53,345 nucleotides of DNA from Escherichia coli (GTDB lineage Bacteria > Pseudomonadota > Gammaproteobacteria > Enterobacterales > Enterobacteriaceae), in NCBI RefSeq assembly GCF_003334405.1, contig NZ_QOWM01000021.1, one strand, 5' to 3'. Position numbers and translations under genes: made by a program. Under the pieces are notes generated by a model that was not told where the DNA came from, made no database searches, and was given only the letters and a program-made list of their open reading frames with translations. Each line of letters begins with the position of its first letter. The first letter of the stretch is position 1. Of the stretch, positions 34,830 through 37,715 are shown one piece after another.

Positions 34830-35429
34830 ATGCTCTATATCTTTGATTTAGGTAATGTGATTGTCGATATCGACTTTAACCGTGTGCTGGGAGCCTGGAG
34901 CGATTTAACGCGTATTCCGCTGGCATCGCTTAAGAAGAGTTTTCATATGGGGGAGGCGTTTCATCAGCATGAGCGTGGGGAAATTAGCGACGAAGCGTTC
35001 GCAGAGGCGCTGTGTCATGAGATGGCTCTACCGCTAAGCTACGAGCAGTTCTCTCACGGCTGGCAGGCGGTGTTTGTTGCGCTGCGCCCGGAAGTGATCG
35101 CCATCATGCATAAACTGCGTGAGCAGGGGCATCGCGTGGTGGTGCTTTCCAATACCAACCGCCTGCATACCACCTTCTGGCCGGAAGAATACCCGGAAAT
35201 TCGTGATGCTGCTGACCATATCTATCTGTCGCAAGATCTGGGGATGCGCAAACCTGAAGCACGAATTTACCAGCATGTTTTGCAGGCGGAAGGTTTTTCA
35301 CCCAGCGATACGGTCTTTTTCGACGATAACGCCGATAATATAGAAGGAGCCAATCAGCTGGGCATTACCAGTATTCTGGTGAAAGATAAAACCACCATCC
35401 CGGACTATTTCGCGAAGGTGTTATGCTAA
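34830..35429 (+). CDS. yihX: HAD-family alpha-D-glucose-1-phosphate phosphatase YihX
   Basis: ORF-track frame trimmed to [15 protein letters not shown] (ATG 34830; SD AAAGGAGG at 34817-34824); HAD motif I DLGNV. Confidence 0.9.
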
Positions 35430-36295
35430 AAACCATTCAGGACAAAGCCAGGCACCGTACCCGTCCACTATGGGCCTGGCTAAAACTACTCTGGCAACGC
35501 ATTGATGAGGACAACATGACAACCCTGGCAGGTAACCTTGCCTATGTGTCGTTGCTCTCATTAGTGCCGCTGGTTGCCGTTGTTTTTGCGCTTTTCGCCG
35601 CTTTTCCCATGTTTTCCGACGTCAGCATTCAGTTACGTCACTTTATTTTTGCCAACTTTCTGCCTGCTACTGGCGATGTTATTCAGCGGTATATCGAACA
35701 ATTTGTTGCCAATTCCAACAAGATGACCGCCGTTGGGGCGTGCGGGCTGATCGTCACCGCGTTATTGTTGATGTACTCCATCGATAGCGCGTTGAATACC
35801 ATCTGGCGCAGTAAACGAGCGCGACCAAAAATTTACTCGTTCGCCGTGTACTGGATGATTTTAACGCTGGGGCCGCTGCTGGCAGGGGCCAGTCTGGCGA
35901 TCAGTTCCTATTTGCTCTCCCTGCGCTGGGCGAGCGATCTCAATACTGTCATCGACAACGTGCTGCGTATTTTTCCGTTGCTGTTGTCGTGGATCTCCTT
36001 CTGGTTGCTGTACAGCATTGTTCCTACCATCCGCGTACCTAACCGCGACGCGATTGTCGGCGCGTTTGTCGCCGCACTCCTGTTCGAAGCAGGAAAGAAA
36101 GGTTTCGCGCTTTATATCACCATGTTCCCGTCATATCAGCTCATTTATGGTGTGCTGGCGGTGATCCCCATTCTCTTTGTTTGGGTCTACTGGACATGGT
36201 GTATCGTCTTGCTTGGCGCGGAAATTACTGTCACTCTCGGGGAATACCGCAAACTAAAACAAGCAGCTGAACAAGAAGAAGACGACGAACCATGA
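35423..36295 (+). CDS. yihY: YihY/BrkB-family inner membrane protein
   Basis: 290-aa hydrophobic ORF; overlaps the yihX stop by 7 nt and the dtd start by 4 nt. Confidence 0.9.
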
Positions 36296-36729
36296 TTGCA
36301 TTAATTCAACGCGTAACCCGTGCCAGCGTCACCGTGGAGGGAGAAGTGACGGGCGAAATTGGCGCGGGACTTTTGGTGTTATTGGGTGTCGAAAAGGATG
36401 ACGACGAACAGAAAGCAAACCGTCTGTGCGAGCGTGTGCTCGGCTACCGCATCTTTAGCGATGCCGAAGGCAAGATGAATCTCAACGTGCAACAGGCGGG
36501 CGGCAGTGTGCTGGTGGTTTCCCAGTTTACCCTCGCCGCAGATACCGAACGGGGGATGCGCCCAAGTTTCTCCAAAGGTGCATCACCGGATCGCGCAGAG
36601 GCGTTATATGACTATTTCGTCGAACGCTGCCGTCAGCAAGAGATGAACACGCAAACAGGACGCTTCGCTGCGGATATGCAGGTATCGCTGGTCAATGATG
36701 GCCCCGTGACATTCTGGTTGCAGGTATGA
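36292..36729 (+). CDS. dtd: D-aminoacyl-tRNA deacylase
   Basis: 145-aa [40 protein letters not shown]... with conserved SQFTL and NDGPVTF motifs. Confidence 0.95.
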
Positions 36730-37715
36730 GCCAGCTTCCAGGGTTGTCACGGGAAACAAGAGAGAGTATCGCTATGTATCACCTTCGGGTTCCACAAACA
36801 GAAGAAGAATTAGAGCGTTACTATCAGTTTCGCTGGGAAATGTTGCGTAAGCCCCTGCATCAACCAAAAGGTTCGGAACGCGACGCGTGGGATGCGATGG
36901 CGCATCACCAGATGGTCGTCGACGAGCAGGGTAATCTGGTGGCGGTAGGCCGACTGTATATTAATGCCGACAATGAAGCGTCCATTCGCTTTATGGCCGT
37001 TCATCCCGACGTGCAGGACAAAGGGTTAGGCACGCTGATGGCGATGACCCTGGAGTCGGTGGCGCGTCAGGAAGGCGTTAAGCGCGTGACCTGTAGCGCC
37101 CGTGAAGACGCGGTGGAGTTTTTCGCCAAGCTGGGGTTTGTTAATCAGGGAGAAATCACCACGCCAACCACCACGCCGATTCGCCATTTTTTGATGATTA
37201 AGCCCGTCGCCACTCTGGATGACATTCTGCATCGCGGCGACTGGTGCGCGCAGCTGCAACAGGCGTGGTACGAACATATCCCGCTTAGTGAAAAAATGGG
37301 CGTGCGCATTCAGCAATATACCGGGCAAAAATTTATCACTACCATGCCAGAAACCGGCAATCAGAATCCGCACCATACGCTGTTTGCCGGGAGTTTATTC
37401 TCACTGGCGACGCTCACCGGTTGGGGACTTATCTGGCTGATGCTGCGTGAACGCCACCTCGGCGGAACGATTATTCTTGCGGATGCGCATATCCGCTACA
37501 GCAAGCCGATTAGCGGTAAACCTCATGCGGTAGCCGACCTCGGTGCCTTAAGCGGCGATCTCGACCGTCTGGCGCGCGGACGAAAAGCACGGGTGCAGAT
37601 GCAGGTCGAAATCTTTGGCGACGAGACGCCGGGTGCAGTGTTTGAAGGCACGTATATCGTTCTGCCCGCGAAGCCATTTGGCCCGTATGAAGAGGGCGGG
37701 AACGAAGAAGAGTAG
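36726..37715 (+). CDS. yiiD: Bifunctional GNAT acetyltransferase / thioesterase-like protein YiiD
   Basis: 329-aa ORF; the N-terminal half has a GNAT-like acetyl-CoA-binding segment ([23 protein letters not shown]), the C-terminal half is thioesterase-like. Confidence 0.9.

Follow-up and report, generated by a model that had tools for sequence, protein, structure and literature searches.

The yihX-yihY-dtd-yiiD (fabY) operon of Escherichia coli: two stop/start overlaps and a likely downstream start for yiiD

The window analyzed in this study, a stretch of 53,345 nucleotides from Escherichia coli (contig NZ_QOWM01000021.1), carries the genes yihX, yihY, dtd, and yiiD (also called fabY and madA) one after another on the plus strand (Table 1). 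The unit is an ordinary, already catalogued housekeeping operon of E. coli: the RegulonDB/EcoCyc unit yihXY-dtd-yiiD (fabY) of K-12 has the identical four genes, order, and strand, and we found no substantive difference. All four genes were found in every complete E. coli genome searched (5,426/5,426). The window is 100% identical to strain 300709 (NZ_CP025903.1) over positions 34700-37800. The annotation of K-12 MG1655 agrees in the four genes and their order and has a longer start for fabY; downstream, 438 bp of the yiiE/yiiF region of K-12 are absent from this window, which comes from another E. coli strain. The intergenic distances, all on the plus strand, are -7, -4, and +44 nt, the last becoming -4 nt when the K-12 start of yiiD is used. 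A preliminary description of this DNA had placed the unit at 35423-37715, a span that does cover yihY to yiiD but omits yihX itself.

Table 1. Features of the yihX-yiiD region; positions are those of the window.
Feature	Position	Strand	Remarks
Promoter-like element	34771-34799	+	TAGCCA (34771-34776), 17-bp spacer, TACAGT (34794-34799); recognized by conservation
Shine-Dalgarno sequence AAGGAGG of yihX	34818-34824	+	strong; duplex with the 16S 3' end, -11.6 kcal/mol
yihX	34830-35429	+	HAD-family alpha-D-glucose-1-phosphate phosphatase, 199 aa
yihY	35423-36295	+	BrkB/YihY-family inner-membrane protein, 290 aa; NF002457 and RefSeq
dtd	36292-36729	+	D-aminoacyl-tRNA deacylase, 145 aa; TIGR00256 and RefSeq
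RNA hairpin, about 15 bp	36703-36753	+	spans the dtd stop; AUGA (dtd stop and ATG36726) in the apical loop
48-nt "extension"	36726-36773	+	start codon and 15 codons (16 residues); 5' end of yiiD/fabY according to K-12
Purine tract GAGAGAG	36760-36766	+	weak Shine-Dalgarno sequence for ATG36774; duplex, -5.1 kcal/mol
yiiD (fabY, madA)	36774-37715	+	malonyl-ACP decarboxylase, 313 aa from the conserved start
GC-rich hairpin, 10 bp	37722-37745	+	no U-tract; begins 7 nt past the yiiD stop

The gene identities proposed in that description were borne out. YihX, YihY, and Dtd exceeded the curated cut-offs of NCBIfam equivalogs in full-length matches to the glucose-1-phosphatase NF006991 (405.8 bits; cut-off 295), to NF002457 of the YihY/BrkB family, together with TIGR00765 (477.1 bits; cut-off 307), and to TIGR00256 (residues 1-145, 256.5 bits; cut-off 101.5), respectively, and RefSeq agrees with these assignments. 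YiiD contains the yiiD_Cterm hot-dog domain TIGR02447 (residues 181-314, 164.3 bits; cut-off 97.1), which matches PDB 1T82 (E = 2.8e-30), and GNAT matches at approximately residues 52-147. This combination, a GNAT domain at the N-terminus joined to a Pfam_09500/YiiD_C hot-dog domain, is the architecture of E. coli MadA, which has been characterized as a malonyl-ACP decarboxylase with a GNAT fold at residues 19-162 in the 329-aa numbering (PMC8666670); the last gene of the unit encodes this same protein. Our literature search found no papers on the function of YihY.

The gene order is kept across Enterobacterales. Among 75 loci with full flanks, the order was yihX-yihY-dtd-yiiD in 46, yihX-dtd-yiiD in 11, yihY-dtd-yiiD in 6, and yihY-dtd in 10. 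The yihY-dtd linkage is limited to the Enterobacterales-Vibrionales-Pasteurellales group, and a homologue search with the Dtd protein returned close relatives only. A deeper conservation of this gene pair was considered and rejected, as YihY homologues with at most 44% identity adjoin FMN_red, ArsC, DUF4398, or UPF0114 genes, not dtd. In all lineages, synteny breaks off past yiiD, where a canonical terminator, a hairpin followed by a T-tract, is present in many relatives. The GC-rich hairpin just past yiiD in the window may be a non-canonical structure marking the 3' end of the unit; the terminator scan did not report it. A search for known RNA families gave only sub-threshold REP-type matches, all of them outside the unit.

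The promoter-like element upstream of yihX belongs to a block, cT[AG]TTCA-N9-TTTcCCGC-TA[CGA]AGT, that is present in 55 of the 61 yihX-bearing loci regardless of the upstream gene, always 28-40 nt (mostly 28-32) 5' of the yihX ATG. The T, A, A, G, and T of the -10-like hexamer are invariant in an alignment of 19 genera, and no conserved RNA structure that would account for the block was found. In the window, the hexamer ends 30 nt 5' of the yihX ATG, and TAGCCA-17-TACAGT agrees with the sigma-70 consensus at 8 of 12 positions, with a poor -35, which is below the 9/12 threshold of our consensus scan. The element resembles GCTACAGTTAA, which might hint at sigma-S dependence of the yihX promoter. 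In a published SELEX list for the RpoS holoenzyme, the locus appears only via a peak in the yiiD-yiiE spacer (PMC5493296). The paired stretch of the yihX Shine-Dalgarno sequence ends 4 nt before ATG34830, and AAGGAGG is separated from this ATG by 5 nt. Since no terminator separates csqR from yihX, read-through is possible, and the yihX unit may also be transcribed in this way. A leader hairpin at 34783-34822 that sequesters the yihX Shine-Dalgarno sequence requires read-through RNA from csqR to form, and we discarded it as a conserved riboregulator, because no consensus structure was found in 19 genera.

The proposal that the four genes are one expression unit agrees with several observations. 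The RegulonDB data as used in PMC4421995 give yihXY-dtd-yiiD as a four-gene operon, and published data describe co-induction of dtd and yihY after an acid shift. The genes lie on the same strand and are spaced too closely for a terminator and a promoter, with either start of yiiD. Internal promoters and terminators had been named as the observation that would speak against a single unit; our consensus scan, a weak and insensitive test, found no plus-strand promoter-like site at 34830-37715, and the terminator scan found no hairpin with a U-tract at the yihX/yihY, yihY/dtd, or dtd/yiiD junction. The sole plus-strand terminator-like site inside the unit, at 37100 within yiiD, has a 5-bp stem, and terminator-like matches occurred at the chance rate (5 found versus 6.0 expected). 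The case for a single operon, which rests on the cited RegulonDB listing and on features read from the DNA, including the conserved element 5' of yihX and the kept gene order, is thus a supported one.

The first two overlaps are present as proposed. The 7-nt overlap ATGCTAA joins the yihY ATG at 35423 to the yihX stop TAA at 35427-35429 and is robust, because ATG35423 is the sole start codon upstream of a conserved 12-letter protein block. The Shine-Dalgarno sequence of yihY is weak (-3.9 kcal/mol). The 4-nt overlap of yihY and dtd, ATGA at 36292-36295, is likewise robust, as MIALIQRV is a universal N-terminus of Dtd. Of 65 yihY-dtd junctions in other species, 44 retain the overlap as ATGA or GTGA, and ATGA is found from Enterobacterales to Vibrionaceae, Pasteurellaceae, and Orbales. 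This conservation is perhaps partly automatic, because the Met-Ile start of Dtd (ATG AT.) builds TGA into the +1 frame. In Serratia, Yersinia, Hafnia, Aeromonas, and others, overlap junctions have loosened to spacers of 6-170 nt with the gene order retained. In the window, dtd has no recognizable Shine-Dalgarno sequence (duplex, -1.9 kcal/mol), and it is essentially absent in E. coli and approximately 24 close relatives (-1.6 to -3.3 kcal/mol), but a clear AGGAG is present where a spacer precedes dtd. The median was -3.3 where dtd overlaps the upstream gene and -6.1 where a spacer is present (Mann-Whitney p = 7e-6, uncorrected for phylogeny). The RNA around the dtd start is unstructured.

Both distances fall within the coupling geometry of -8 to +6 nt, which is shared by 707 of 2,987 co-directional gene pairs of E. 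coli (24%), -4 being the commonest distance (PMC10666635). The yihY/dtd ATGA has the commonest geometry of the class of gene pairs studied by Huber et al. in 2019 (PMC6728339) and 2023 (PMC10666635), and the 7-nt overlap of yihX and yihY lies inside the range deemed efficient there for termination-reinitiation. Strict coupling was observed in four of the five native E. coli pairs tested with a -4 overlap, whereas the ATGA pair bioBF was uncoupled (PMC6728339). In contrast to those pairs, coupling in the present unit is proposed from the sequence, and the four proteins are not known to belong to a common complex. Given the overlaps and a dtd gene lacking a Shine-Dalgarno sequence, translational coupling from yihX to yihY to dtd is plausible.

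Overlaps of this kind are also found elsewhere in the window: two successive 4-nt overlaps in fdoGHI-fdhE (fdhE/fdoI and fdoI/fdoH), one of 19 nt in mobB/mobA, and one of 1 nt in frvR/frvX. Runs of overlaps thus occur twice in 53 kb. The products of fdoGHI-fdhE are the subunits and accessory factor of a single enzyme, whereas those of the yihX unit have unrelated activities. The earlier characterization of this combination as an unusual functional mix was overstated: approximately 70% of closely spaced E. coli pairs are not subunits of one complex (PMC10666635), and mixed-function operons are common.

At the third junction, positions 36726-36729 do read ATGA, and the frame that begins with ATG36726 stays open up to 37715, as had been described, but it is doubtful that ATG36726 is the real start of yiiD. 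The dtd/yiiD overlap arises only with this start, as in the 329-aa annotation of K-12 MG1655. ATG36774 lies 48 nt further downstream, 44 nt past the dtd stop, and yields a protein of 313 aa; the RefSeq PGAP annotation of other strains starts yiiD there. Published tetracycline-inhibited ribosome profiling (TetRP) places the yiiD start at +48 nt, classed as "1. new site", with signals in three samples of 30.1, 22.0, and 6.1 at this position versus 7.2, 0, and 0 at ATG36726. The methionine of MYHL encoded by ATG36774 is conserved in 57 of 57 related loci, 26 of which have no in-frame start at -4 that is open through to it, owing to an intervening stop or a different frame. The 48-nt extension lacks codon periodicity (entropy by codon position 0.42/0.64/0.67, versus 0.06/0.00/0.75 in dtd and 0.09/0.15/0.81 in yiiD), and its pN/pS is 0.54, compared with 0.64 and 1.23 for the two alternative frames. 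The profiling, the PGAP annotation, the conserved methionine, and the non-coding-like evolution of the extension indicate that ATG36774 is most likely the functional start. For the most part, the extension is most likely left untranslated and acts as a spacer, with 44 nt lying past the dtd stop, and the third overlap most likely traces back to a start-codon annotation that is out of date. Nevertheless, the frame of ATG36726 has remained open in 21 of the 21 closest relatives, even after indels of +3 and -12 nt, and a minor long isoform of YiiD may be made from it.

The surroundings of the two candidate starts also differ. For ATG36774, the stretch paired with 16S RNA ends 5 nt before the ATG, and GAGAGAG itself ends 7 nt before it. 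ACAAGAGAGA is the sole invariant block of the dtd-yiiD spacer in an alignment of 19 close relatives, and a related (A/G)GAGA motif is found 5' of the conserved methionine across Enterobacterales. In contrast, a strong hairpin holds ATG36726 in its loop, and the Shine-Dalgarno sequence of this start has zero spacing. This hairpin has a folding energy of -36 kcal/mol over 91 nt (z = -3.1; z = -3.9 on an 80-nt window), and covariation is seen at a single pair of its weak consensus fold. We rejected it as a conserved regulatory feature: z averages -0.8 within core Enterobacteriaceae and 0.0 outside them, and the structure is lineage-specific. The previously suggested coupling of yiiD to dtd is unsupported, as the functional start, 44 nt past the dtd stop, is outside the coupling range; a gap of 38 nt nearly eliminates reinitiation in native E. 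coli pairs (PMC10666635). Because ATG36774 lies at this distance and has its own site, yiiD would be co-transcribed with dtd yet not tightly coupled to it.

Three other explanations of the locus were weighed. All four proteins, including the 329-aa YiiD from ATG36726, might be produced by one chain of coupled translation across three stop/start overlaps. The ATGA and its open frame, the MG1655 annotation, the persistence of the frame in the 21 closest relatives through two in-frame indel events, and the small TetRP signal that one of the three samples shows at the annotated site are consistent with such a chain. We consider it very unlikely, however, since the TetRP signal lies chiefly at the new site at +48, PGAP starts at 36774, and the extension lacks codon periodicity, with a pN/pS of 0.54. 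Furthermore, the extension is unavailable in 26 of the 57 related loci, whereas the downstream methionine and purine tract are universal; ATG36726 is placed in a hairpin loop with no spacing to its Shine-Dalgarno sequence; and the GNAT fold begins at residue 19. It is also highly improbable that the four genes are expressed separately from internal promoters, for example for yiiD/fabY, or through processing sites. The scans gave neither a plus-strand promoter-like site at 34830-37715 nor a hairpin with a U-tract at the junctions, the overlapping coding regions of the first two junctions leave no room for a terminator and a promoter, and the RegulonDB data, as cited above, list a single four-gene unit. 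Separate expression would fit the ribosome-binding site and 44-nt spacer that yiiD has of its own, the stable hairpin in that spacer, which could serve as a processing or stabilizing site, and the insensitivity of consensus scans. It would also fit Aeromonas and Aliivibrio, where yiiD can be expressed alone because it lies 320-1065 nt from dtd.

The genes may instead be co-transcribed and initiated independently, the overlaps having arisen neutrally through genome compaction and drift of stop codons, without functional coupling. The frequency of such overlaps (24% of co-directional pairs at -8 to +6 nt), the TGA of yihY that is built into codons 1-2 of dtd, the variable, low-complexity C-terminal tail of YihY, the 6-170 nt spacers of Serratia, Yersinia, Hafnia, Aeromonas, and others within an unbroken gene order, and the uncoupled ATGA pair bioBF all favor neutrality. 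In contrast, dtd lacks a Shine-Dalgarno sequence in E. coli and approximately 24 close relatives and is preceded by a clear AGGAG in the spacer taxa, and strict coupling holds for four of the five native ATGA pairs tested in E. coli. The dtd start region is also unstructured, so that unmasking of a hidden site would be unneeded and reinitiation would be the simplest route. On balance, we regard purely neutral overlaps as rather unlikely.

We consider it probable that the four genes form a co-transcribed operon in which yihY and dtd are translated largely by termination-reinitiation, while yiiD is initiated at ATG36774 from its own site and is not tightly coupled. This explanation builds on the gene identities, the overlap geometry, and the conservation of order and junctions established above, together with the published yiiD start and operon listing. 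Transcription would most likely start at the conserved promoter-like element approximately 30 nt 5' of yihX, whose use as a promoter we infer, and the transcript would run through the four genes and end just past yiiD/fabY. Ribosomes would load efficiently at the strong Shine-Dalgarno sequence of yihX. Translation of yihY, with its 7-nt overlap and weak Shine-Dalgarno sequence, would probably be carried out largely by ribosomes that terminate on yihX and reinitiate on the spot, and dtd, with its 4-nt ATGA and no Shine-Dalgarno sequence, would probably be served largely in the same manner by ribosomes terminating on yihY. YiiD/FabY would be translated from the same mRNA through its own weak purine-rich ribosome-binding site.

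A further idea, which we regard as a long shot, is that yihY-dtd(-yiiD) is a real functional module handling D-amino acids. In such a module, Dtd would free D-amino acids from tRNA, the GNAT domain of YiiD would possibly acetylate them, and YihY might export them or act with Dtd. The basis of this idea is the genomic neighbourhood, with its long-standing, close association of yihY and dtd, together with GNAT similarities that are weak and sub-threshold: in Enterobacterales and Vibrionaceae, dtd is usually followed by the gene of a GNAT-domain protein that is closest in sequence to amino-acid N-acetyltransferases.

The discovery value of the unit itself is little: the operon is already listed, activities are known for all of its proteins but YihY, and short overlaps of stop and start codons rank among the commonest features of bacterial genomes. 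Our analysis nevertheless bears on the K-12 reference, in which the start of fabY/yiiD is contradicted by published start-site profiling and by conservation. With the K-12 start, yiiD spuriously overlaps dtd and gains 16 N-terminal residues, which are counted when MadA residues are numbered; the numbering in PMC8666670 follows the 329-aa annotation, whereas start-site profiling and conservation indicate a protein of 313 aa. For the study of YihY, its conserved, overlap-linked place directly 5' of dtd is the best clue on hand.

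The yihX-yihY-dtd-yiiD unit is a known feature of E. coli with an ordinary architecture. From the sequence and its ORF list, the four genes lie on the + strand at 34830-37715. A 3.1-kb query (34700-37800) matched 5,426 of 5,426 complete E. coli genomes, with coverage of at least 80% in 5,423, and the annotated order in these genomes was csqR, yihX, yihY, dtd, fabY (yiiD). The yiiD product is the characterised malonyl-ACP decarboxylase MadA/FabY, whose GNAT fold spans residues 19-162 in the 329-aa numbering (PMC8666670); its hot-dog domain matches PDB 1T82. The preliminary description of three stop/start overlaps was partly confirmed, as two overlaps are real and the third depends on annotation. 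Its interpretation was likewise supported in part: the reading of the four genes as one operon was supported, but neither a full chain of translational coupling nor an unusual functional mix was upheld.

Features of the yihX-yihY-dtd-yiiD region (window positions)
Feature	Position	Strand	Description
Promoter-like element	34771-34776, 34794-34799	+	TAGCCA, 17-bp spacer, TACAGT; window version of the conserved block
Stem-loop before yihX	34783-34822		CCTTTCCCGCTACA paired with the yihX Shine-Dalgarno region
yihX	34830-35429	+	glucose-1-phosphatase; NF006991, 405.8 bits, cut-off 295 (NCBIfam)
yihY	35423-36295	+	BrkB/YihY-family membrane protein; NF002457, 477.1 bits, cut-off 307 (NCBIfam)
dtd	36292-36729	+	D-aminoacyl-tRNA deacylase; TIGR00256, 256.5 bits, cut-off 101.5 (NCBIfam)
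dtd-stop hairpin	36703-36753		about 15 bp, AUGA in loop
yiiD	to 37715	+	GNAT region and yiiD_Cterm hot-dog domain; TIGR02447, 164.3 bits, cut-off 97.1
Hairpin past yiiD	37722-37745		10 bp, GC-rich, without U-tract
AT-rich stretch	37750-38500		32-35% GC, flanks about 55%
83-bp repeat	38429-38511		438 bp missing relative to strain 300709
yiiF	38566-38808		80-aa ORF
REP-type palindromic repeats	38853-38935		sub-threshold Rfam matches
fdhE/fdoI/fdoH	39138-41600	-	two 4-nt overlaps

The operon is supported by RegulonDB, whose transcription units include yihXY-dtd-yiiD, one of 47 four-gene operons (Esquerré et al., PMC4421995), by the lack of + strand promoter-like sites within the unit in a consensus scan, and by a conserved block upstream of yihX. 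The scan gave a single internal + strand terminator-like site (37100, in yiiD, 5-bp stem), and terminator-like sites were no more frequent than chance (5, against an expected 6.0). Microarray data placed dtd (log2 1.5) and yihY (log2 1.1) among the genes induced at least 2-fold by an acid shift (PMC2270276). The upstream block, cT[AG]TTCA-N9-TTTcCCGC-TA[CGA]AGT, was present in 55 of 61 Enterobacterales loci, ending 28-40 nt (mostly 28-32) ahead of the yihX ATG, whatever the preceding gene and often directly past that gene's terminator. Since RNAalifold found no consensus RNA structure in this region, its best reading from sequence is a putative DNA-level promoter, and its non-consensus yet conserved -35 region may mark a regulator site. 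The stem-loop before yihX (-30.7 kcal/mol for 111 nt, z = -2.7) showed no conservation across genera and is possible only in csqR read-through RNA, given the overlap of its 5' arm with the putative promoter. At the other end, synteny stops past yiiD in all lineages; at the site of the GC-rich E. coli hairpin, a canonical terminator is present in many relatives.

The AT-rich stretch beyond yiiD, in which strain 300709 (NZ_CP025903.1) has an annotated pseudogene fragment at 38075-38191, may be left over from horizontally acquired DNA; an RpoS-holoenzyme SELEX peak lies within the yiiD-yiiE spacer (PMC5493296). The 438 bp missing from the window lie between two copies of the 83-bp repeat, leaving one gene of the yiiE/yiiF pair; K-12 annotates both, with slightly different spacing. 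The Rfam matches of the REP-type repeats were naRNA4 at 38.2 bits (gathering 59.5) and ES036 at 36.8 (gathering 37.6).

The first two overlaps are secure. The yihX stop (35427-35429) and the yihY ATG (35423) share the 7 nt ATGCTAA, and no start codon other than ATG35423 precedes the conserved block at the YihY N-terminus. The yihY/dtd overlap is ATGA (36292-36295), and the Dtd N-terminus MIALIQRV was conserved in all relatives compared. The TGA terminating yihY is part of dtd codons 1-2 (ATG AT.), so one third of reading frames would stop there automatically. Such junctions are common: 707 of 2,987 co-directional E. coli pairs (24%) lie at -8 to +6 nt, most often at -4, and of the closely spaced pairs only 30% code for subunits of a shared complex (PMC10666635), so the functional mix is not unusual. 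Assuming independent junctions, about 170 runs of two are expected genome-wide. The same 53-kb window holds a second run, fdhE/fdoI/fdoH, and two further overlaps, mobB/mobA and frvR/frvX. The fdhE-fdoI-fdoH genes belong to a single enzyme system; their overlaps were read from the strain 300709 annotation (L082, 39576-42036), with window coordinates about 438 nt lower.

In contrast, the 4-nt dtd/yiiD overlap depends on annotation. The ATGA exists (36726-36729) with an open frame, and K-12 MG1655 is annotated with fabY starting at ATG36726 (329 aa), whereas PGAP places the start in strain 300709, identical in DNA across the 3.1-kb query, at ATG36774 (313 aa). Four lines of evidence (comparative, substitution pattern, ribosome-binding sites and ribosome profiling) point to ATG36774, so the overlap is mainly an annotation artefact. 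Among 80 loci around dtd (one genome per species, genes placed by tblastn), 57 had yiiD near dtd, and all 57 kept the methionine of MYHL/MFRL (E. coli residue 17), 15-320 nt (typically 23-89) past the dtd stop; in 26 of them an intervening stop or different frame leaves no open in-frame -4 start. All 21 of the closest relatives keep the frame from ATG36726 open, despite indels of +3 and -12 nt, but the two or three in-frame indel events are too few for significance. Across 19 close relatives whose spacer is also 44 nt long, the 15 codons separating the ATGs did not vary like real coding sequence: pN/pS was 0.54 (entropy by codon position 0.42/0.64/0.67) in the annotated frame and 0.64 and 1.23 in the other two, versus 0.02 (0.06/0.00/0.75) at the dtd 3' end and 0.12 (0.09/0.15/0.81) after Met17.

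The sole invariant block of this spacer in the 19 relatives is ACAAGAGAGA, a purine tract just 5' of ATG36774 whose GAGAGAG stops 7 nt ahead of it. The Shine-Dalgarno (SD) sequence there is modest (-5.1 kcal/mol, pairing ending 5 nt before the ATG); that of ATG36726 is -3.4 kcal/mol with zero spacing, and this ATG falls within the apical loop of a hairpin that is strong in E. coli. Tetracycline-inhibited ribosome profiling placed a "1. new site" ATG at +48 nt, with signals of 30.1/22.0/6.1 versus 7.2/0/0 at the annotated site (Nakahigashi et al. 2016, PMC4909307). A minor long YiiD isoform might still arise via reinitiation at the ATGA. Most relatives lack the dtd-stop hairpin (z about -3 to -3.9), whereas E. 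coli, Pseudocitrobacter and Superficieibacter have it in strong form; 20 sequences showed one covarying pair (C-G/U-A/U-G, a dtd Leu codon with the base after TGA) and 0 mismatches.

With ATG36774 as its start, yiiD lies beyond coupling range, since coupling of native E. coli pairs is nearly gone at +38 nt (PMC10666635), whereas native ATGA pairs were strictly coupled in 4 of 5 tested (PMC6728339). SD strength falls from yihX (AAGGAGG, -11.6 kcal/mol) to yihY (-3.9) and dtd (-1.9), and the dtd start region is unstructured. Across loci, the median dtd SD was -3.3 kcal/mol where dtd overlaps or abuts the upstream gene (n = 48) versus -6.1 with a spacer of at least 6 nt (n = 26; Mann-Whitney p = 7e-6, not phylogeny-corrected and dominated by the core Enterobacteriaceae clade). 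On this pattern and the published coupling tests, yihY and dtd are most likely translated by termination-reinitiation, and yiiD most likely initiates independently.

Gene order was tallied in 75 loci with full flanks. The full order occurred in 46 (Enterobacteriaceae, Erwiniaceae, Yersiniaceae and others), yihX-dtd-yiiD in 11 (Dickeya, Pectobacterium, Brenneria, Photorhabdus, Xenorhabdus, Providencia, Morganella), yihY-dtd-yiiD in 6 (Vibrionaceae and others) and yihY-dtd in 10 (Orbales, Pasteurellales and two Aeromonas loci with yiiD more than 700 nt downstream). ATGA or GTGA overlaps were retained at 44 of 65 yihY-dtd junctions. The 7-nt yihX/yihY overlap was confined to 20 core Enterobacteriaceae, a single clade; 11 loci, chiefly Erwiniaceae, overlap by 4 or 1 nt, and other taxa have spacers of 3-174 nt. 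Short metagenomic YihY homologues (46-52% identity) likewise have dtd directly downstream, at +7 and -4 nt, and homologues of at most 44% identity, several of them long (410-450 aa), neighbour FMN_red, ArsC, DUF4398 and UPF0114 genes. The latter set is a second conserved neighbourhood replacing dtd, on metagenomic and genomic contigs (L085, L086, L089, L090), and it accompanies short homologues as well as long ones (about 436 aa). The gene orders and homologue neighbourhoods therefore indicate that yihY-dtd is the old core, to which yihX and yiiD were gained or lost lineage by lineage.

Two consequences go slightly beyond what is catalogued. Since ribosome profiling and conservation favour the shorter YiiD, the K-12 fabY record and the MadA residue numbering include 16 probably untranslated codons, and the K-12 start annotation should be corrected. 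Furthermore, the conserved yihY-dtd linkage is a clue to the function of the orphan YihY.
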